Origin: a virus
Taxonomy: Duplodnaviria; Heunggongvirae; Uroviricota; Caudoviricetes
Direction: 5' to 3' (one strand)
Length of the DNA: 21,412 nucleotides
IMG/VR virus record: IMGVR_UViG_2740892117_000010
Location: 1 to 21,412 of that record
The notes below the pieces were generated by a model, which saw only the letters and a list, made by a program, of their open reading frames with translations, was not told the DNA's origin and made no database searches. This document shows positions 3,759 to 21,412 of this stretch, piece after piece; position 1 is the first letter of the stretch; every line of letters begins with the position of its first letter. The position numbers and the translations under genes were made by a program.

Positions 3759-4811
3759 TTATTTCCCCACCAGCTCATTTATCTCTTTCACTGTCTGATT
3801 AAACCGCTCTGACTCAAGCTCAACACCTAAGGCCCGACGCCCCAGCGCCATTGCTGCTTTTATTGTGGAACCGGATCCCATAAAAAAATCAGCAACCAGA
3901 TCACCTGGTCGACTACTGGCATTGATTATTTGCCTGAGCATATCCGCCGGTTTCTCACACGGATGTTTCCCCGGGTAGAACTGAACGGGTTTATGCATCC
4001 AGACATCGGTATAAGGCACGGAGACTGATACGGAGAAATAGCGCCGGAGAGATTTAAACTCATCCAGCAATTCAGAATATTTACGATTCAGTGAATCATA
4101 AGATGCCACCAGCTGGTGGTGTGGTTGTTCCAGTTGTTGTTCCTGAAACTTCTCTGCCGCTATACGGGAAAACAGTGCCTGTAACTTCCGATAGTCAGCC
4201 TCATTCGGCAACTGCCACTGACTGGCACCAAACCAGTGGGAAACCATATTTTTCTTACCTGTGGCTTCGGCAATTTGTTTTGCCGTTATACCCAGTTCGG
4301 CACGAGCATCCCTGAAATACGATATCAGCGGTGCCATTATGTGCTGTTTGAGTTCCCTTTCTTTTGCTGCATAGCCGTCACTTTTGCCGCGATATGGCCC
4401 CTGGTAATGTTCAGCAAACAGAACGCGCTCTGTGGCAGGAAAATATGCGCGCAGACTTTCTTTATTACACCCATTCCAACGTCCGGACGGCTTCGCCCAG
4501 ATGATATGGTTAAGCACGTTGAAACGTTCACGCATCATGATCTCAATATCAGATGCCAGGCGATGCCCACAGAACAGGTAAAGGCTTCCGGCAGGTTTTA
4601 ACACCCGCCAGAACTGGGCCAGACAGTGGTCCAGCCACTTAAGGTAATCTTCGTCCCCTTTCCACTGATTGTCCCAGCCGTTGGGTTTCACCTTGAAGTA
4701 CGGCGGATCGGTAACAATCAGGTCAATGGAATCATCAGGCAGGGACTGAATAAAATGCAGGCAATCAGCGTTGATTAAATCAACACTGTTTATTTTTACA
4801 GTATTTTTCAT
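3759..4811 (-). CDS. DNA methyltransferase (N6-adenine/N4-cytosine class, DPPY motif), orphan
   Basis: Contains IVTDPPYF (motif IV) and a C-terminal FxGSGST-like AdoMet motif; no adjacent restriction endonuclease. Confidence 0.85.
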
Positions 4812-4961
4812 GGATCAGTAAGCGTAACTCTGGTAGGCTCACTCTGCTTTTGCGCTAAAGCAGTGGGCCGTGGTTCGCTTGTGACCAGTAAGCATGAGCG
4901 AATGGCTGGCAGGTGCTACCAACACCCACCAGCCGCCCATTTTCACAGCAGGAAACCGCCA

Positions 4962-5189
4962 TTACTGGCAGCGTCTGAATTTATTCCCGTACCCGCCGTT
5001 ATCCTTCGCCAGACCCGCCAGAACTAACTGAGTCAGTATTAACTGGCACCGGGCTTCGCTTACTCCGGTAGTTCTCGTCATCATGCGTGGCGTTACCCAC
5101 TTGTCAGCAGGTAAGAAATGAAGGACTGCGGCGGCGGTTTCTGTCATATCTTGCTGTTTTAGCATGTCTTTTTCCCTTCTGGTTAACAT
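4962..5189 (-). CDS. Small hypothetical protein (75 aa; possible start at 5165), first ORF after the late terminator
   Basis: ORF with GAAGGG upstream of the second ATG; C-terminal half looks like a winged-helix segment; function unknown. Confidence 0.4.
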   Translation of the reverse strand: MLTRREKDMLKQQDMTETAAAVLHFLPADKWVTPRMMTRTTGVSEARCQLILTQLVLAGLAKDNGGYGNKFRRCQ

Positions 5190-5283
5190 GACATACCAAT
5201 AACTCTTGTCTAAAAATCCAGCAAGATAAAAAGTCAGTATTCACGACCACCAGCGTGTTTACTGTACTGCACCAAGTTTACAG

Positions 5284-5311
5284 GTACAAAAAACCCGCTC
5301 AGTGGCGGGTT
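5284..5311 (-). terminator. tR-prime-like intrinsic terminator downstream of the late promoter
   Basis: Minus strand reads AACCCGCCACTGAGCGGGTT followed by TTTTTTGT. Confidence 0.7.
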
Positions 5312-5357
5312 CTTAAATCTTATCAACGGTAGACATACAAAGCCCATCGTTGGGGAA

Positions 5358-5386
5358 ATCTTATCCATATTTTTTGAAAAATGCAA
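5358..5386 (-). promoter_or_regulatory. Late promoter (pR-prime-like), presumed Q-engagement region
   Basis: Minus strand TTGCAT - 17 nt - TAAGAT immediately downstream of the Q-like gene stop and about 45 nt upstream of the tR-prime-like hairpin. Confidence 0.6.
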
Positions 5387-5417
5387 GTATCATGTCGTCA
5401 TCTTCGGCGAAAATCAT

Positions 5418-6212
5418 TTATCTTGTCACTTTTCTCAATTGTGTCTCTGCATATGCTTCTTCCTGCCAGCACTTTGTAACCAGTTTATCAATGACATCTG
5501 CATATCCTTTGTACCACTGATAATCCGTCAGATCCGGTACCAGCTTCTGGACATGATGCCGCGCCAGTGTGGTTGGTAAACGGCTAAACCGGTTTCCATT
5601 GCAACGCCCACAAATCTTATAAACAGGCGTGCCATGAAGCCGGGTCCTTTTTTCATCCAGGACAATACCTTTACCCTTACACCCTCTGCACGCTGTGCTG
5701 ACTTCTCCCTTACCATGACAATGCTGACATAGTTCCTTCACCCACTCCTCCTTGATAACAGATTCACCGCTTCTGGAGTGTTTCACCACTTCGCGCAATA
5801 CATTATGAAATCCAGTACCTGCACAATGCTCACAGCGAGCCTTACTTGCCGCAGACCTGGAATAATCAGCAAAGGCAAAATTCACAAGGTAAGGGATGAT
5901 CTGTAACCGGGTTTCTTCACTCAATTTATTCAATGTCGGGTTATCCAGTGCCATCGCGTAATTGAGCAGACCTTCAATCGCAAACTGAGGATCCTGAACA
6001 CCAACTTTTGCCAGGAATAAGGCAAAACCCAGTGGTGCTTTCGACTGCACCATCCCCTGCGCAGCCATTACATCCGTAATTGTTAAACCACCAGAGCCTG
6101 TCGCCGGTGCGTCATCGCTCAATTTTGGAGATTTCGGGGAGTAATATTTCGGTAAGGCTTCAAGGTTCATGCTCGTTCTCCACTTACGCCAGCACGCCAA
6201 TTGCCAGCGCAC
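5418..6212 (-). CDS. Q: Late-gene antiterminator Q (phage-82 / QuuQ-like family)
   Basis: Position directly upstream of the late promoter and terminator; several CxxC zinc-binding pairs (CEHCAGTG, CQHCHGKG, CRGCKGKG, CGRCNG). Start may be the internal ATG at 6170. Confidence 0.7.
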   Translation of the reverse strand: MRWQLACWRKWRTSMNLEALPKYYSPKSPKLSDDAPATGSGGLTITDVMAAQGMVQSKAPLGFALFLAKVGVQDPQFAIEGLLNYAMALDNPTLNKLSEETRLQIIPYLVNFAFADYSRSAASKARCEHCAGTGFHNVLREVVKHSRSGESVIKEEWVKELCQHCHGKGEVSTACRGCKGKGIVLDEKRTRLHGTPVYKICGRCNGNRFSRLPTTLARHHVQKLVPDLTDYQWYKGYADVIDKLVTKCWQEEAYAETQLRKVTR

Positions 6213-7179
6213 GATCGATAAAACGAAATATCAGCTCCAGCTGGGAGCCATACTTCTCTTCAAATGCCACGGTATCCGCATGCAGCTCGTCGTGATGCTT
6301 TCTGCACAAAGGCAACACAAAAAGGTCATGCGCTTTTGTTCCCATTCCACCCTGACCGTGACCTATCAGGTGGTGGGGATCATCAGCGGGCTTTCCACAA
6401 CATGCACACGGCTGTGTCTTAACCCAGCGCGTGTACTTTTCATTAACCCAGCGGCGACGTTTTGGGCGTAACATAAAAGACTCCGGCGACTCCGGATCCA
6501 CTTTCAGCGCCAGCACCTTTTTCGCCTTATCCTGGATGATGCTGGTGGCAGGAACCGAAGGCACAAGGTCACTTTCCCGGGTAACAGACGGCACAACAGG
6601 CTTCGGTAATCTCAGTGCCTTACGGGCTGCACTTTCCGGTAAGGCATCCGCCAGATCATTACGAATCAGCCACCAGCACAGTTCCGGCATTGTCACAACG
6701 TGACTGTCATCAAAACCGAGATCCCGACGCACAACAGACAACACCCAGCGGGCACAGTTATCCGTTGCCATTGATTCCAGCCGTTCCGTGAACTGATCGC
6801 GCAGCTGGTTATCGCAGTGCCAGCACAGACGGATTGCACCCGGAGCGTGTCGCATTGTGGTCATGTTCTCGCTGTGCCAGTCGGAATGAGGCCACTGGCA
6901 GCCTTTTTCACGAAGTAACCAGCTTTCAAGACATTCCACGCCACCAGCACGACGGATCACTGCCTCATTGCGGAACACGGCCCGAACGGCAGGATCATCC
7001 GCCAGCGGTTGTGATGCCGCCGGAACGGCACCACTGGCGAAAGATGAATAACGCTCCGGCTCAGGCTCCAGCAGGACACGCCCCTGCATAAACAGGGGCA
7101 TCAGCTCTGAACCTGGCCTGAACAATACGATCCCCATACGCGGGGCAATTTCAGGGGTCAGTAGTGCTCTCACGGTCAC
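6184..7179 (-). CDS. DUF968 / YdfU-like protein with C-terminal HNH-like motif
   Basis: C-terminal CACCGKPADDPHHLIGHGQGG...CRKHHDELH resembles an HNH/zinc-finger nuclease motif; lies upstream of Q as ydfU does in the Qin prophage (from memory). Confidence 0.65.
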   Translation of the reverse strand: MTVRALLTPEIAPRMGIVLFRPGSELMPLFMQGRVLLEPEPERYSSFASGAVPAASQPLADDPAVRAVFRNEAVIRRAGGVECLESWLLREKGCQWPHSDWHSENMTTMRHAPGAIRLCWHCDNQLRDQFTERLESMATDNCARWVLSVVRRDLGFDDSHVVTMPELCWWLIRNDLADALPESAARKALRLPKPVVPSVTRESDLVPSVPATSIIQDKAKKVLALKVDPESPESFMLRPKRRRWVNEKYTRWVKTQPCACCGKPADDPHHLIGHGQGGMGTKAHDLFVLPLCRKHHDELHADTVAFEEKYGSQLELIFRFIDRALAIGVLA

Positions 7180-16469: not shown

Positions 16470-16679
16470 ATGGCAAAACTAATGAAAGCGAGCCAATGGG
16501 GACGCCGTGAATTCTCTAATGGCTCAATTCCTGACAACCGAACGATAAAACGCTGGGTCGAGAACGGTCTGCTCATGGGGCGTATAGTGGACGGTTCTGT
16601 TTTTGTCTGCGAAACAGAAAAATGGGGAGTCGACTCAATGGTTAGTCAAGCTGTTCGCAAGTTAATAAATGAGGGATGA
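16470..16679 (+). CDS. xis: Excisionase (lambda Xis-like)
   Basis: About 69-aa basic protein with a TIKRWVENG...DGSVFVCE pattern like lambda Xis (RRWVRE...DGREYLF); stop overlaps the int start (ATGA). Confidence 0.7.
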   Translation: MAKLMKASQWGRREFSNGSIPDNRTIKRWVENGLLMGRIVDGSVFVCETEKWGVDSMVSQAVRKLINEG

Positions 16680-17860
16680 CCATGGCGGCAAGGCCACGTA
16701 AAAAAGAATACAGACATCTTCCTGATTATCTGGTTTTTGATAAAGATCGAGGTGTTTATAAATTCACACTTATTACCGGAAAAAAGAAAAATATAGGTAA
16801 GGATCGGGCAATAGCCGTTGCAATCGCCAGAGAGTACAACCTGAGGATGCGATCAGAATTATACCCATCAGTGGATAATCTTATTAGAGAATCTGGCGGG
16901 GTCACCGGAGAAGCAAAACCATTTGCTGAACATGTCGATCACATAATGGCCAGAATTATCGAAGACGAACGACCTTCCCAGAGTACCTTAGATGACTGGA
17001 AAAATGACGCTCTACGCGTAAAAGCATTTTTCGTAAATGTTCCGGCATGCGATATCGAACTTGAACACGTTAATGCCTACATCAACAAATATCATGCCAG
17101 CGCATCCGCAAATGTGCAGAACAGAAAGGTCAGCTTTCTTAAAAAGTTGTTCTCTTATGCGGTCGATGAATCACTAATGCAGGATAACCCGGCCATCAGA
17201 AAAAAAATGCGTAGGACTGATGAGAAGAAAAGACGGCGCCTGTCACTCGAGCATTTTATAGCTATCAGGCAGGCCGCTGCACCATGGTTAAGAACAGCAA
17301 TGGACCTAGCATTGCAGACTACACATGCACGACTCGAAGTATCGCGAATCCGTTACTCAATTCGCGAACCTAAAGACGGTTTATGTGGATGTGTTTGGTT
17401 CGAACAACCACAAAATGGCATATATGGTACACTATACATCCATAGGCAAAAAGTACAAAAAAAGGAGGCATCACATGTTGCAATACCAATTGGTGAAGAA
17501 TTGAAACGGATAATTGACAATAGCCGTGACAATGTGGCCAGTCCCTTTGTCGTTCATAGAATCCCAGAACGGCATGTTAAACGCAGTAAAGAGGTTTCGC
17601 ACCCAACTCAAGTTGCACCAGATTATTTGAGTCGGTCATTCTCTTCCGTGCGAGACAAACTCGGACTATGCAATCATCTAGCAATGGAACAAAGACCTAC
17701 ATTCCATGAAATAAGAGCTTTGGCAGCTCACCTATTTGATAAACAAGGGATTGATCCGCAGGGACGAATGGCACATAGCGATGCGAAATCTACTAAAATT
17801 TATACTAAAAATCATATAGATTGGATTGTTGTCCCTCATGGAGAAATTAAAACCGGTTAG
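16676..17860 (+). CDS. int: Tyrosine integrase, lambda Int family
   Basis: N-terminal arm-binding-like region; C-terminal catalytic region parallels lambda Int (PTFHEIRALAAHLF vs PTFHELRSLSARLY, then H...Y). Confidence 0.9.
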   Translation: MTMAARPRKKEYRHLPDYLVFDKDRGVYKFTLITGKKKNIGKDRAIAVAIAREYNLRMRSELYPSVDNLIRESGGVTGEAKPFAEHVDHIMARIIEDERPSQSTLDDWKNDALRVKAFFVNVPACDIELEHVNAYINKYHASASANVQNRKVSFLKKLFSYAVDESLMQDNPAIRKKMRRTDEKKRRRLSLEHFIAIRQAAAPWLRTAMDLALQTTHARLEVSRIRYSIREPKDGLCGCVWFEQPQNGIYGTLYIHRQKVQKKEASHVAIPIGEELKRIIDNSRDNVASPFVVHRIPERHVKRSKEVSHPTQVAPDYLSRSFSSVRDKLGLCNHLAMEQRPTFHEIRALAAHLFDKQGIDPQGRMAHSDAKSTKIYTKNHIDWIVVPHGEIKTG

Positions 17861-17997: not shown

Positions 17998-18954
17998 TTA
18001 TTTACCCTTATTATACTCTTCAGTAATCTTATTCATGGATGATATATATTTATCCAGCCCACCATAGTTGGCTATCATTCGAAATGAATTACGGTACTCT
18101 GCCATTTTCACATCATGATTAGTAATTCCACACCAGCCACAAACTTTATTTTCCATGTTTAAAGGCTCATAACATTTTTTACATTGCCTTGATGCAGGTA
18201 TTATATTGCCATTAATAAATTGGTGTGATTTGAGATTTTGAGATAAAAGAAATGGTGTAGTTGTTGTTTTTCCTATTACCATTTCGAAATATCTACATTT
18301 AGCCTTTTTAGCTAAAGATTGAATTTTCTGCTTTAATAAATCATTTGATTTGTGCCCAACTATAACTCCAGTTATACAATTAATCGGTACCGGAAGGAGC
18401 ATAAGATTGTCATTCAGTTTAGTAAGTGCTTTCTCATTAATTATTACGCGACGTTCCTGCTCATAACTCCAGCAAGTTTGTTTTGTCAAATATGCGGCTG
18501 TCATTATACAGGATTGTAGCCAGTAGATATAACGAGGTTTACAGATATGAAATGCTCTCGCCAGAATGTCTTCAATACCTGTATCTGGAGAATCTTTATA
18601 TTCAACATCTGCTATTGAACTATGATCCTGGAAGCCGATTTCATCCAAATACTTTTTAAACTTCTCCTCATTAATCTCTATTACAAAACCAGAAGAATTA
18701 CCTGCATAATGTGCCCACATAGGTGGTATCACAGGGCTTTTCGTAAAACAAGTTGCTGGTTGTTTTGTAACCATGCCAATCATTTCATTGTAAAATGCTA
18801 ACTCATCAGAACCGCGATTAAAATCAATAGTAAGGAAAAACTCATAGGGATCATTATATTCATGTAAATGAGAGAATTTTATTCCTATATGTGTTTCATC
18901 CATCATCAATTTATCAATTATATCCGCTCCCATAAACTTATACAAATTGGTCAT
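17998..18954 (-). CDS. DUF2971-like protein with C-terminal CxxC...CxxC zinc ribbon; AT-rich cargo gene
   Basis: ATG at 18954 with AAGGAG Shine-Dalgarno; N-terminal NLYKF...FSHLHEYNDPYEF resembles the DUF2971 signature as remembered; C-terminal CKKCYEPLNMENKVCGWCG; markedly AT-rich versus flanks. Confidence 0.6.
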   Translation of the reverse strand: MTNLYKFMGADIIDKLMMDETHIGIKFSHLHEYNDPYEFFLTIDFNRGSDELAFYNEMIGMVTKQPATCFTKSPVIPPMWAHYAGNSSGFVIEINEEKFKKYLDEIGFQDHSSIADVEYKDSPDTGIEDILARAFHICKPRYIYWLQSCIMTAAYLTKQTCWSYEQERRVIINEKALTKLNDNLMLLPVPINCITGVIVGHKSNDLLKQKIQSLAKKAKCRYFEMVIGKTTTTPFLLSQNLKSHQFINGNIIPASRQCKKCYEPLNMENKVCGWCGITNHDVKMAEYRNSFRMIANYGGLDKYISSMNKITEEYNKGK

Positions 18955-19050
18955 ATACAACTCCTTTTTTATAAAATAACATTTTAAATCATATGATTAT
19001 GGAGGCACAAAATCCAGTAATTAGTTTTCAAGCCGGTTGTGATGTAGTTC

Positions 19051-19403
19051 GAGGACAAACTGAAACGTATTATTGATAACAGTCGCGATAACGTTGCCTG
19101 CCCGTATATCGTTCACCGTATACCGAGCGTAATAACAAACGCAGTAAAGAGGTATCCGCACCTGCCTATCTTAGCCATACTTTTCATTGCCCCGTGATTC
19201 GTTAGGCTTGTGTAATAATTTGACGATGGAGCTGCGCCCCCACATTCCACAAAATACGCGCACTAGCTGCATTTTGTTTGATAAACAGGGAGTAGACCAC
19301 AAGGGCTCATAGCCCACAGCGACGCGAAATCAACGAAAATTTATACGCGGAACCATATGATTGGGTAATGCTTCCGCACGGTGAAATTAAATACAATGCA
19401 TAA
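19051..19403 (+). pseudogene. Decayed 3' remnant of a second lambda-family integrase
   Basis: Roughly 70 percent nucleotide similarity by eye to int 17497-17860 (KLKRIIDNSRDNVA..., ...PHGEIK), with frameshifts and premature stops. Confidence 0.75.
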
Positions 19404-19436
19404 TAAAATTGGCCTCAAATGAGGCCAATTTTGGGG
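19404..19436. terminator. Bidirectional intrinsic terminator (perfect 12-bp inverted repeat AAATTGGCCTCA / TGAGGCCAATTT)
   Basis: Hairpin flanked by T-runs on both strands, between the integrase remnant and the convergent two-gene operon. Confidence 0.75.
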
Positions 19437-19437
19437 A

Positions 19438-19821
19438 TTAGGACGCTTTAGACTTGGTCATATTAGCGCAACGCTGGATTAATTTCTCTGCAGTCTTAAT
19501 CGCGGTGCTTGATTGGGTTGGCGTAATAGTGTCGTTAAGTCTGTAATCACAAACTATTCTCTGATCCTTAAGCGATTGAAGAGCATACCCCAAACCAATT
19601 AAGTCTCTTTTTTCAAAAGGTTCGTTACCCTTCCAAGCATCGTTAACAAGATAGTCAATGAGGCCTTGGTGACTTTCTTTCGGCCCCATGGTCAAACACG
19701 GAAGTACGTGGTGATAAGCACCATAATACGCACGTGCGACAGCGTTTCTGTAACCAATTTCGTCGTTACGCTTTTCACAATCTTTTGCGAAAGCGATAAA
19801 ATCGGAACTATTAACTGGCAC
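19438..19821 (-). CDS. Hypothetical protein (127 aa from GTG 19821; 144 aa if TTG 19872), possible HEPN-like helical fold
   Basis: GTG at 19821 with GGAGGA 8 nt upstream, overlapping the upstream stop; RAYYGAYHH has R-x6-H spacing but family assignment is speculative. Confidence 0.55.
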   Translation of the reverse strand: MPVNSSDFIAFAKDCEKRNDEIGYRNAVARAYYGAYHHVLPCLTMGPKESHQGLIDYLVNDAWKGNEPFEKRDLIGLGYALQSLKDQRIVCDYRLNDTITPTQSSTAIKTAEKLIQRCANMTKSKAS

Positions 19822-20578
19822 GCGCAGGTTCCTCCAAACGCCCTTCAAACCATACGCTGAAGGGTTTTCCAATCAAACTTTCATTTTCTGCAAGAGAAAA
19901 TGCTATATCCAAGTTCATATCAGAGAGAACATCAGAATCTTCAGTATTAACTGCCATGACATATGATGACGTACGCTCTTCAGGGATAGAGCAGAAAGAC
20001 ATAGCAACAGGACTAACTTTATGGTCAGCCATGATATCCACTATGCGGTTTGCAATATCCTGTAGTTCTTCATCAGTAATTCCAGTTGCACTTTTGAAGG
20101 TCGTGGATTGGGCCAGTGCTGTGGCTGCGAGGTGCTTAACCAATTCAGCCTCCTTTTCATCTACCATACTTATCAATCTCTCAGCATAGTAGAGCGCTTT
20201 GTCAATACGCCCCAAGAACAAGTTAGCTTCCCATGCATGGGACAGCATCGTAGGGGAGTTATAACGTTCAACTAATCGATTTACCACTTGTTCAACTTCA
20301 CGGAAGCTGCCGTAATCGTTGAGATAAACTACATAATTTTGAGCAATGATCAGGTTGTTATGCTTCAATGCTTCTTCAAAGAATGCAACTGCAGTATCTT
20401 TACGCCCAAAAGCACCATTAGCCAACGCTTTGAGATAGTCCTCAGATGCGCTGTCGCGCAACTTTTCTATATCTCTGATATAACGAAAATATTGCATTTC
20501 GGATATCGTATTCCGAGCCGCAAGAATATCGATTAATTCACTGCTGATTTCGTTCGCTTTTAGCGCCGGCTGTGGCAT
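19811..20578 (-). CDS. Hypothetical alpha-helical protein (255 aa), first gene of a two-gene operon
   Basis: ATG at 20578 with AAAGGTGA Shine-Dalgarno; TPR-like helical composition by eye; no catalytic motif recognised. Confidence 0.6.
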   Translation of the reverse strand: MPQPALKANEISSELIDILAARNTISEMQYFRYIRDIEKLRDSASEDYLKALANGAFGRKDTAVAFFEEALKHNNLIIAQNYVVYLNDYGSFREVEQVVNRLVERYNSPTMLSHAWEANLFLGRIDKALYYAERLISMVDEKEAELVKHLAATALAQSTTFKSATGITDEELQDIANRIVDIMADHKVSPVAMSFCSIPEERTSSYVMAVNTEDSDVLSDMNLDIAFSLAENESLIGKPFSVWFEGRLEEPARAS

Positions 20579-20773
20579 TAAATCACCTTTAAGAAACTAC
20601 GAGCTATGTTGCTTTAACTTCTGCAATCTTAGTAAGTTTTAGAAGGTTACATGAAGATGATCGTAATTTCCAATGGGCTAAAATGGTCAAAAAGCGAAGT
20701 AATTGTTGACTTTACGCCAAACATAAAACAATCAACAAAAAACATGTAGCCGCTCGGAAACTTAGGAGATAAG

Positions 20774-20802
20774 TCTGTGGATAACTAAATCTTATCCACA
20801 GA
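20774..20802. promoter_or_regulatory. Head-to-head pair of consensus DnaA boxes (TTATCCACA) forming an 11-bp inverted repeat
   Basis: TCTGTGGATAA - 7 bp - TTATCCACAGA in the AT-rich upstream region of the 19438-20578 operon. Confidence 0.5.
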
Positions 20803-21012
20803 AAAGCATATTAGAAGCAAATCAAAAAGTGCTATAGACGGAACCTATTAATATAGTAATGCTCCAAAAACTGACCATTTAGGAGTGGGGAAAAATCTCT
20901 CTTAACTCATTGATGTATATAGCGTGAATTTTGCGAATTATGCACTGTTTGCGCACACAGTGAAACACCCTGCCAGCCCAGCAATGGCGCGGTCTCCAGC
21001 GTTTCAGGCGCG

Positions 21013-21062
21013 GTGACATGGGGTGTCGGGGGTCGGAGGTTCAAATCCTCTCGTGCCGACCA
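21013..21062 (+). other. att core: 3' fragment of tRNA-Pro (proL-like; anticodon arm to CCA), not a complete tRNA
   Basis: ...ATGGGGTGTCGGGGGTCGGAGGTTCAAATCCTCTCGTGCCGACCA matches the remembered proL 3' half (T-arm, acceptor 3' strand, CCA); no complementary 5' acceptor strand (CGGCACG) upstream. Confidence 0.75.
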
Positions 21063-21074
21063 AAAATCCCAAGA

Positions 21075-21102
21075 AAACCAACCTATTGCGGTTGGTTTTT
21101 TT
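21075..21102 (+). terminator. Intrinsic terminator (native host terminator following tRNA-Pro)
   Basis: AAAACCAACC - TATTGC - GGTTGGTTTT followed by a T-run. Confidence 0.8.
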
Positions 21103-21163
21103 ATATCTGCATTTAATTCGATAAACAGACCGCGACACATCACGGCCTGTTTATTTTCTGTTA

Positions 21164-21412
21164 TCAGAACGTCCAGACCACACCCGCCTGAGTTGTGCTG
21201 CTTTCTTCACGGGAGAAACGGCTGTCGATACCAAGCGTTAGCCCCGTCAATGTTTGCTCAAAGCCAGCGCCTGCATCAGTGGTCACGTTGTTGCGGCTGT
21301 TAATTGCCGAACTCCACATCGCCGTATCGTAATTAACGCCTTTTACGCTACCAAGACGCCCACGCACGGTGTCCAGTTCTGCATCAAATACCAGCGGTTG
21401 TGCTGCCGCCAT
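21164..21412 (-). CDS. Host outer-membrane/autotransporter-like protein, C-terminal fragment (yejO-like; continues beyond window end)
   Basis: Beta-strand-like alternating pattern ending in a terminal aromatic (...AGVVWTF); convergent with tRNA-Pro as yejO is beside proL in E. coli K-12 (from memory). Confidence 0.45.
   Translation of the reverse strand: MAAAQPLVFDAELDTVRGRLGSVKGVNYDTAMWSSAINSRNNVTTDAGAGFEQTLTGLTLGIDSRFSREESSTTQAGVVWTF

Follow-up and report, generated by a model that had tools for sequence, protein, structure and literature searches.

A conserved gene pair in temperate phages encodes an HEPN-domain protein and a TPR-like partner: a candidate two-component conflict module

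The DNA analysed here, referred to throughout as the window, is a 21,412-nt stretch of the Caudoviricetes record IMGVR_UViG_2740892117_000010 (positions 1 to 21,412). Beside the attachment (att) junction of the element it carries two overlapping minus-strand genes, a large gene followed by a small gene, whose products bear no functional annotation. We give about an even chance to the reading that temperate phages carry this pair as lysogenic-conversion cargo and that it is a mobile conflict module of two components, in which an HEPN ribonuclease (RNase) would be gated by a tetratricopeptide repeat (TPR) partner and would act in abortive infection or addiction. The evidence comes from the fold and family of the proteins, their conserved residues, the near-obligate pairing and overlap of the genes, purifying selection, and the restriction of the pair to cargo positions in temperate phages.

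The small protein

Profile, fold and the position of an alternative histidine all place the small protein among HEPN domains of the AF0298/UPF0332 type. A profile built from 33 homologues matched the PDB chains 9xbd_A (expect value, E, 5.7e-5), 9xbc_A (3.2e-4) and 2hsb_A, which is AF0298 (0.028), in near-full-length alignments. The AlphaFold2 (AF2) model, with a predicted local distance difference test score (pLDDT) of 92.1, consists of five helices in the HEPN fold, and the top structural matches in Foldseek were all HEPN proteins: 2hsb, which was the best, 2q00, 1ufb, sacsin HEPN, Csm6, HepT and AbiV. The protein falls into phrog_5176 of PHROGs (E 5.8e-30), some of its homologues have been named "UPF0332 family" by the Joint Genome Institute, and one homologue (P0048) carries a precomputed match to the Pfam HEPN family, PF05168. 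An earlier note on this DNA had called the small protein loosely HEPN-like and the large one TPR-like and helical, and had proposed Foldseek comparison of AlphaFold models as a check; the profile matches, the AF2 model and the Foldseek comparison bear out the HEPN assignment, and the models also returned a TPR-like large protein. The sequence RAYYGAYHH, on which the HEPN suggestion had been based, is a helix-2 signature of UPF0332-type HEPN proteins; it is not the HEPN catalytic motif.

Twelve columns of the small protein are at least 90% identical across 64 non-redundant loci (E21, R25, R30, Y32, Y33, H37, H51, L54, L81, R88, D92 and Y93), and the polar residues among them (E21, R25, R30, Y32, Y33, H37, H51, R88, D92 and Y93) form an invariant set. 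The position of the catalytic motif reads R88-I-V-C-D92-Y93, in which R, D and Y are invariant. Y93, next to the motif, is presumably comparable to the equally invariant tyrosine in the Rx4HxY motif of HepT, which is said, in work of Yao and of Songailiene from 2020, to be AMPylated. H51 is present in 64 of 64 loci and aligns with the histidine of the sequence SKTHRG in 2hsb, which lies in the insert between helices 2 and 3, N-terminal to the motif arginine. In AF0298 and AbiV, where the motif histidine is likewise missing, a second conserved histidine in the helix 2-3 insert and the motif arginine have been proposed as an alternative active site (Anantharaman et al., PMC3710099). Judged from this conservation, H51 and R88, the latter within R88-x3-D92-Y93, are candidate catalytic residues.

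The aligned regions of PDB entries 9xbd and 9xbc differ by a Tyr to Phe change at the position equivalent to Y93; because of this difference, the tyrosine appears to have been probed already by others. Literature searches returned no paper for 9xbd or 9xbc.

The large protein

The model of the large protein (pLDDT 91.4) divides into an array of TPR-like helical hairpins, which extends from the N-terminus to about residue 165, and a C-terminal domain of alpha-beta-beta-alpha-beta topology at 169-246, so that the TPR-like and helical character predicted earlier holds for the first part and an alpha/beta domain is present in addition. The C-terminal domain (~169-246) contains the motif DMNxxLAxxLAE..GKxFSxWF. 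Searched alone, it gave no credible match among PDB sequences or in Pfam. In SCOP terms, RimP-N, RbfA and type II KH domains have the same topology, a likeness that we take only as a lead.

An exhaustive profile search of 1.84 billion cluster representatives recovered 157 relatives of the large protein (E<=1e-3), about 110 of which are full-length (240-290 aa) and share the same architecture. Over the 64 loci that served for the small protein, the large protein has a single column conserved at 90% or more, N222; on this evidence it resembles a binding or regulatory protein and not an enzyme. No nucleotidyltransferase was detected by Pfam in the large protein of the window, in four distant members or in the C-terminal domains of 34 members, nor by PADLOC models in 110 members of the family, and the GS...DxD motif is absent. 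Pfam and structure comparison also revealed no recognisable DNA-binding domain. A structure search of BFVD returned two uncharacterised full-length relatives and nothing else. In PHROGs the large family is spread over four groups (17809, 22649, 37103 and 9890), while the small family stays in one (phrog_5176); all are of unknown function.

Conservation of the gene pair

The pairing was first hinted at by adjoining locus tags in Citrobacter and Klebsiella. When the small-protein alignment was run against IMG/VR, 161 viral contigs were recovered; the pairing was counted in 80 loci with 82 HEPN genes. An open reading frame (ORF) lies directly upstream of the HEPN gene in 81 of the 82; the last gene is at a contig end. 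In 79 of the 82 this ORF is a profile-positive large gene on the same strand, mostly overlapping the HEPN gene by 1-20 nt or abutting it. Two further HEPN genes follow divergent ORFs of 261 aa and 203 aa, with overlaps of 4 and 20 nt; the C-terminal sequences of these ORFs are similar to the family motif. The pairing is kept even in a subfamily whose large and small proteins are 22% and 34% identical to those of the window. Pairing of the small and the large gene is thus close to obligate, and the survey of co-occurrence and gene neighbourhoods that the earlier note had called for shows it to be conserved almost without exception in distant relatives. Two contigs have two diverged copies of the pair (L085, at 171-1368 and 4222-5405; L094, at 4397-5369 and 5595-6782); those in L094 form a tandem in which one large partner is shortened to 203 aa.

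The two proteins evolve at different rates. In all but one of 65 distinct pairs the small protein is the better conserved (62% versus 35% identity in one case), a difference that would be expected of an effector accompanied by a sensor or antitoxin that evolves fast. Purifying selection acts on both genes, with ratios of non-synonymous to synonymous substitution rates (Ka/Ks) of 0.08-0.14 at Ks ~0.25.

Gene layout and control signals

The coordinates of the pair and of the features around it are given in Table 1. As read off the sequence, the stop codon of the large gene (TAA, 19813-19811) lies inside the reading frame that begins with the GTG of the small gene (19821-19819), and the genes therefore overlap by 11 nt (19811-19821). 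The GGAGGA lies 8 nt upstream of GTG 19821. At its full length the ORF of the small gene spans 19438-19872 (-) and would encode 144 aa if a TTG start were used; however, the start residue corresponds to GTG 19821 in all but one of 32 aligned homologues, and RefSeq, through the Prokaryotic Genome Annotation Pipeline (PGAP), has the identical gene pair with the same starts (WP_001136067.1, 255 aa, and WP_001145023.1, 127 aa, both "hypothetical protein"). The ORF list, the sequence and the RefSeq starts all agree with the earlier description of two minus-strand ORFs joined by a start/stop overlap, and overlap or abutment of the two genes is also kept in relatives.

Table 1. Features of the gene pair and its surroundings in the window
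Feature	Position	Strand	Remarks
Decayed integrase, C-terminal fragment, convergent with the pair	19054..19403	+	PGAP pseudogene; intact integrase there in related loci L026-L034
Hairpin terminator between small gene and convergent integrase remnant	19405..19432	.	12-bp stem, -17.5 kcal/mol, z = -5.4
Small gene	19438..19821	-	127 aa from GTG 19821; AF0298/UPF0332-type HEPN domain
Protospacer in small gene	19552..19584	-	Exact E. coli CRISPR spacer match; ATG protospacer-adjacent motif (PAM) 19586-19584, minus strand
Large gene	19811..20578	-	255 aa, ATG start; ORF list
GGAGGA ribosome-binding site of small gene	19830..19835	-	Within 3' end of large gene; read off sequence
Protospacer in large gene	19968..20000	+	Exact E. 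coli type I-E CRISPR spacer match; ATG PAM 19966-19968
AT-rich upstream (regulatory) region	20579..21016	-	35-38% G+C; conserved blocks when aligned with the diverged relatives L031 and L032
Perfect palindrome, two inverted consensus DnaA-box nonamers	20776..20800	.	TGTGGATAA-N7-TTATCCACA; ~200 nt upstream of large-gene ATG
att repeat at element boundary, 3' 46 nt of tRNA-Pro	21017..21062	+	Identical (100%) to tRNA-Pro sequence in each of 5426 E. coli genomes

Downstream of the small gene, folding recovered the terminator that had earlier been placed at 19406-19431, as a hairpin with a 4-nt loop (19405-19432; z relative to shuffled sequences). A simple terminator scan did not pick it up. On the upstream side, the proposal that the pair has its own AT-rich promoter region held for base composition: the G+C content of 20579-20940 is 35-38%, compared with 41-44% for the genes and ~50% for the flanking chromosome. 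The promoter itself had no statistical support in the hexamer scan, in which promoter-like hexamers were at chance frequency (5 found, 4.5 expected), and so a promoter upstream of the large gene is only inferred.

Searches of the upstream region for known non-coding RNAs (ncRNAs) or repeats found none except the palindrome. This occurs once in the window, and 0 of 100 shuffled sequences contain one. Its arms are invariant and its spacer is variable in two relatives, L031 and L032, in which identity to the large protein of the window falls to 61% and 47.5%; this pattern suggests a candidate protein-binding operator. The palindrome may be a site for DnaA or an operator for autoregulation.

Proposed mechanism

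The proposed mechanism is as follows. The small protein would be an AF0298-type HEPN endoribonuclease, probably dimeric, with an active site of H51 and R88 that is probably formed across the dimer interface. The large protein, which lacks a catalytic signature, would be made in fixed ratio to it through translational coupling, and would bind the HEPN protein, mask it and keep it inactive. The TPR array would sense a trigger, for which a protein from a superinfecting phage is the most likely candidate; alternatively, the partner would be lost or titrated. The freed RNase would then cleave cellular RNA (tRNA, rRNA or mRNA) and growth would stop, the outcome being abortive infection or, upon loss of the element, post-segregational killing. 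We infer the RNase activity, the toxicity, the physical interaction, the trigger and which protein senses it, and the anti-phage phenotype by analogy with HepT-MntA, retron type IX, AbiV and Tha.

Should the pair prove to work in defence or as a toxin-antitoxin system, it would represent a new form of HEPN RNase control, with a TPR partner in place of AMPylation by a minimal nucleotidyltransferase (MNT), multicopy single-stranded DNA (msDNA), CARF or SAVED. The operon is compact (1.6 kb including its own control region), is of E. coli origin and offers obvious point mutants (H51A, R88A and Y93F), and is thus easily tested.

A bolder proposal, which we advance tentatively and regard as somewhat less likely than not, is that the pair belongs to a new prophage abortive-infection family, in which a fast-diversifying TPR plus alpha-beta-beta-alpha-beta protein would directly gate a non-canonical (His...Arg) HEPN RNase without a nucleotidyltransferase, a retron or a second messenger. 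Such a family would have a wide distribution among temperate phages of Gamma- and Betaproteobacteria, one of them a very common prophage of Salmonella Typhimurium; the family may be a free-standing relative of the type IX retron effector pair, and may be wired to host DnaA through the DnaA boxes.

Comparison with known systems

The small protein shares with AF0298/UPF0332-type HEPN-T proteins (2hsb, 9xbd) the same fold, the pattern aYY.a.H in helix 2, the histidine in the helix 2-3 insert and the replacement of Rx4-6H by R-x3-D-Y. Proteins of the AF0298 type are typically stand-alone, or are fused to or paired with minimal nucleotidyltransferases (PMC3710099), whereas the partner here is a TPR plus alpha/beta protein. 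The present family is also phage-borne in Proteobacteria, unlike typical AF0298-type proteins, and the protein in the window falls under the PF05168 threshold.

The effector of retron type IX (HEPN plus winged-helix, Retron-Kva2) offers a second parallel. It too has an upstream histidine and a motif arginine, and a partner of ~245 aa in an overlapping gene, and 2hsb was its best modelling template as well. That HEPN protein lacks Rx4-6H, has H64 and R122 identified as catalytic by mutagenesis, is toxic alone and cleaves rRNA and tRNA (bioRxiv 10.64898/2026.07.14.738597). It is silenced by steric occlusion, in which the ~245-aa partner and msDNA bar the way to the active site (bioRxiv 10.64898/2026.07.14.738597; Mestre et al., PMC7736814). 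The PADLOC model HEPN_IX (PDLC02923) matches 7 of 20 members of the small family, with a best E of 4.2e-5, though not the protein of the window. There are also differences: retron type IX has a reverse transcriptase and an ncRNA, and its HEPN gene comes first, followed by a partner of helical bundles and winged helix, whereas here the partner comes first and combines TPR and alpha/beta parts. No reverse transcriptase was found in the window or in the annotated neighbourhoods, and Rfam detected no retron RNA in 19300-21412. We therefore rejected identity with a type IX retron, on account of the missing reverse transcriptase and ncRNA, the reversed gene order and the different partner. Homology of the large protein to the winged-helix protein of retron IX was likewise rejected, there being no consistent PADLOC match in 110 members of the large family, which is an indirect test. 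Provided that the pair is functional in defence or addiction, its remote link to the type IX effector hints at how retrons acquire effector modules.

In HepT-MntA (type VII) a small HEPN toxin also has an upstream partner, and HepT structures (7bxo, 5yep, 6m6u and 7ae8) are among the fold matches of the small protein, with template modelling (TM) scores of ~0.5-0.55. Unlike in HepT-MntA, the partner is no nucleotidyltransferase, for which reason this identity was rejected; the canonical histidine is absent, and identity to HepT is ~12-15%. AbiV of Lactococcus is an abortive-infection HEPN effector with the same alternative-histidine variant (PMC3710099), but it is a single gene of ~200 aa without a TPR partner, and its structural match is weak (9bj7, probability 0.47, TM 0.38). 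Tha is a tail-activated, prophage-encoded HEPN defence of Staphylococcus aureus that protects the lysogen from other phages (PMC11087260). The present pair is likewise prophage-encoded, but Tha is a single protein with a separately encoded inhibitor and comes from Firmicutes; the comparison is by description, and no homology is expected. The DefensePredictor system DS-28 (HEPN plus a 252-aa protein) is of similar size but was rejected as a different family, since it has the canonical sequence RNSVAH, the HEPN gene first and an unrelated partner.

Literature searches with the accessions, the PHROG ids and combinations of TPR and HEPN found no description of the pair. From these comparisons we rate the pair as a candidate conflict module with an HEPN effector, in which both the partner and the logic of control would be new.

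Evidence against the proposed reading

Several observations weigh against a conflict module built on an RNase. Scans of both proteins with Pfam, NCBIfam and PADLOC gave nothing above threshold: the PADLOC search that had been suggested as a check failed to support a defence assignment, since neither protein of the window matches any model of PADLOC-DB v2.0.0 (no families at E<=1), and there was no consistent match in 110 members of the large family. The accessions of the window proteins are absent from those parts of the DefensePredictor table that were searched. The Pfam HEPN score of the small protein is 12.8 bits, under the PF05168 cut-off of 22; distant relatives score 15.1-18.8 bits. At the motif position the canonical Rx4-6H histidine is missing, so that the protein may bind RNA or nucleotides without being catalytic. 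The two halves of the large protein diverge alike (27.5% versus 27.8% identity) and thus show no sign of diversifying pressure on the TPR half alone, a hypothesis that was rejected on these values. A single clear departure from the pairing argues against a strictly lethal, partner-dependent toxin: in Yersinia phage YP3 the HEPN gene (L020, 4024-4383; 119 aa) occurs without a large partner. Finally, the pair is co-oriented within late operons in several phages, where it may serve the lytic cycle of the phage itself.

Genomic context and functions in the phage life cycle

The statements on context that follow rest on annotated example neighbourhoods. The pair was seen always in temperate phages or prophages, whose hosts include Enterobacterales, Vibrio and Burkholderia, and at varied, non-homologous cargo positions. 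It lies between the antiterminator Q gene and methyltransferase/lysis genes in Yersinia; between a methyltransferase gene and the holin gene in Serratia, with an ApeA-type HEPN gene a few kb away; in a degraded prophage in Pectobacterium; in tail/baseplate blocks, at differing insertion points, in Salmonella and E. coli prophages and in Burkholderia phage vB_E192a; ahead of the tape-measure gene in the tail block of Klebsiella phage ST405-OXA48phi1.3; in the nin-type region of Klebsiella phage Chronis; and, in a P2-like phage of Vibrio, between portal/ogr-like genes and the replication gene A (repA). We take the last position to correspond to the tin/old cargo locus of the P2 map. In the study of Rousset et al. 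(PMC9122126), hotspots of P2-like phages are described as reservoirs of anti-phage systems.

In the window the pair lies between a decayed integrase remnant and the tRNA-Pro att junction, as had been recognised earlier; PGAP calls the recombinase at ~19054-19403 frameshifted and N-terminally truncated, and the att repeat is followed by the chromosomal gene yejO. ARAGORN found no whole tRNA in the window. The closest relatives of the window pair (66-94% identity in the small protein) have an intact convergent integrase ~35 bp past the small gene, which is 77-91% identical to the resident integrase of the window (16676-17860). Because these relatives keep the integrase intact, the ancestral layout is att, pair, integrase; in the window the integrase has decayed and the pair is intact, in line with the idea that the pair was inherited from an older element. 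The slot between int and att is presumably the one in which P22 and Shigella phages keep O-antigen conversion genes.

These positions bear on the possibility that the pair serves the phage itself during infection or induction, through RNA processing, host shut-off or counter-defence (binding of a nucleotide signal or RNA), with the TPR protein as adaptor or chaperone. Co-orientation in late/tail operons or in the Q-lysis region of several phages is consistent with such a function, as are the missing catalytic histidine, which fits a binding role (PMC3710099), and the cataloguing of both families as phage proteins in PHROGs. However, the position differs from one phage group to the next and most relatives of those phages lack the pair, as is typical of morons and not of core functions. 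The pair was found in temperate phages and prophages only, and among 50,697 phage genomes it occurs in six records, the E. coli large protein in none. Between int and att, in the window as in its close relatives, the pair is a separate unit outside any phage operon and has an upstream region and a terminator of its own. Neither protein matches known structural or housekeeping families, by sequence or by structure (Pfam, NCBIfam, PHROGs and BFVD), homology that the earlier note had named as evidence against its proposal. We assign a function for the phage's own benefit a small probability.

A narrower version is that the pair assists tail or virion assembly, with a TPR chaperone and a small helical partner. 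It lies within the tail/baseplate block in myovirus-type prophages of Salmonella and E. coli, in vB_E192a and in ST405-OXA48phi1.3, and the solo HEPN gene of YP3 is wedged between a Pam3_gp18-type baseplate plug gene and a gene annotated as baseplate wedge subunit (baseplate J). Yet the insertion point in the tail block differs between Salmonella and Burkholderia; the same pair occupies lambdoid Q-lysis, nin and int-att slots and a non-structural region of a P2-like phage; the small protein is an HEPN domain with invariant polar residues; and the E. coli pair persists without adjoining tail genes. A role in assembly is accordingly very improbable.

The diverged pair with 22% and 34% identity is located at 6001-7153 in five loci (L012-L016), inside the baseplate block of a myovirus-type prophage; in one of these, L015, it is flanked by insertion sequence elements. 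The large-protein cluster of this subfamily, P0231, covers 575 contigs and 881 index blocks and includes a Salmonella Typhimurium sequence. P0167, a close relative of P0231, is from E. coli.

Distribution in E. coli and CRISPR spacers

The module is present at 99% identity or more in 53 of 5426 complete E. coli genomes, always on the chromosome, and in nearly all cases among the matches listed it stands beside an annotated recombinase remnant. Together with the diverged version in a very common Salmonella prophage, this would make the module, if it works in defence or as a toxin-antitoxin system, frequent enough to matter for the phage-host range of Enterobacterales.

An intact pair in 53 genomes beside a decayed integrase is also what would be expected of a module that resists its own loss. 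A pure addiction (toxin-antitoxin) system, in which a stable HEPN toxin and a labile upstream antitoxin would stabilise the prophage or its remnant and would not act on phages, agrees further with the gene order of putative antitoxin then toxin and with the conserved overlap. The conserved upstream palindrome could serve as its autoregulatory operator, and HEPN toxins are established in the type VII system HepT-MntA, structures of which are among the fold matches. However, the 255-aa first protein has no recognisable DNA-binding or nucleotidyltransferase domain and is thus unlike a type II or type VII antitoxin, the module occurs in phage defence hotspots beside other defence candidates, and the HEPN gene of phage YP3 stands alone. 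Addiction alone retains a minor share of the probability. What is left after the conflict module, addiction, benefit to the phage and tail assembly have received their shares is assigned to explanations that were not considered.

Spacers from clustered regularly interspaced short palindromic repeat (CRISPR) arrays of E. coli match both genes. Each match is an exact one of 33 nt, at one site per gene, and the G of the PAM is the first matched base. The arrays are of type I-E and lie beside queE/ygcE, for example in strains W, LY180, KO11FL, ST2350 and STEC719. About 13 genomes carry the spacer for 19968-20000 and about 6 that for 19552-19584; none of them also holds the module. The two spacers show that E. 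coli has met the module-carrying element as an invader. Loci L102 and L103 are listed together with this observation.

Neighbouring elements and genes

Two copies of one integrase family are found at tRNA-Pro (proL), the intact gene at 16676-17860 (+), which belongs to the resident lambdoid prophage, and the fragment at ~19054-19403 (+), implying successive or tandem integrations. In strain FORC_042 a satellite-like element, with genes for an integrase, an Icd-like protein, a RepA helicase, a small terminase and a capsid protein, lies between the pair and yejO.

The other neighbour of the module, at 17998-18960 (-), encodes a DUF2971 protein (WP_000183538.1) and has a G+C content of 31-36%. 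It matches the PADLOC candidate PDC-S31 (E 4e-22), and its entry in DefensePredictor reads "Predicted novel defense gene", with a log-odds value of 7.86 and remote similarity to AbiGi. A different DUF2971 protein was validated in the DefensePredictor study as DS-45.

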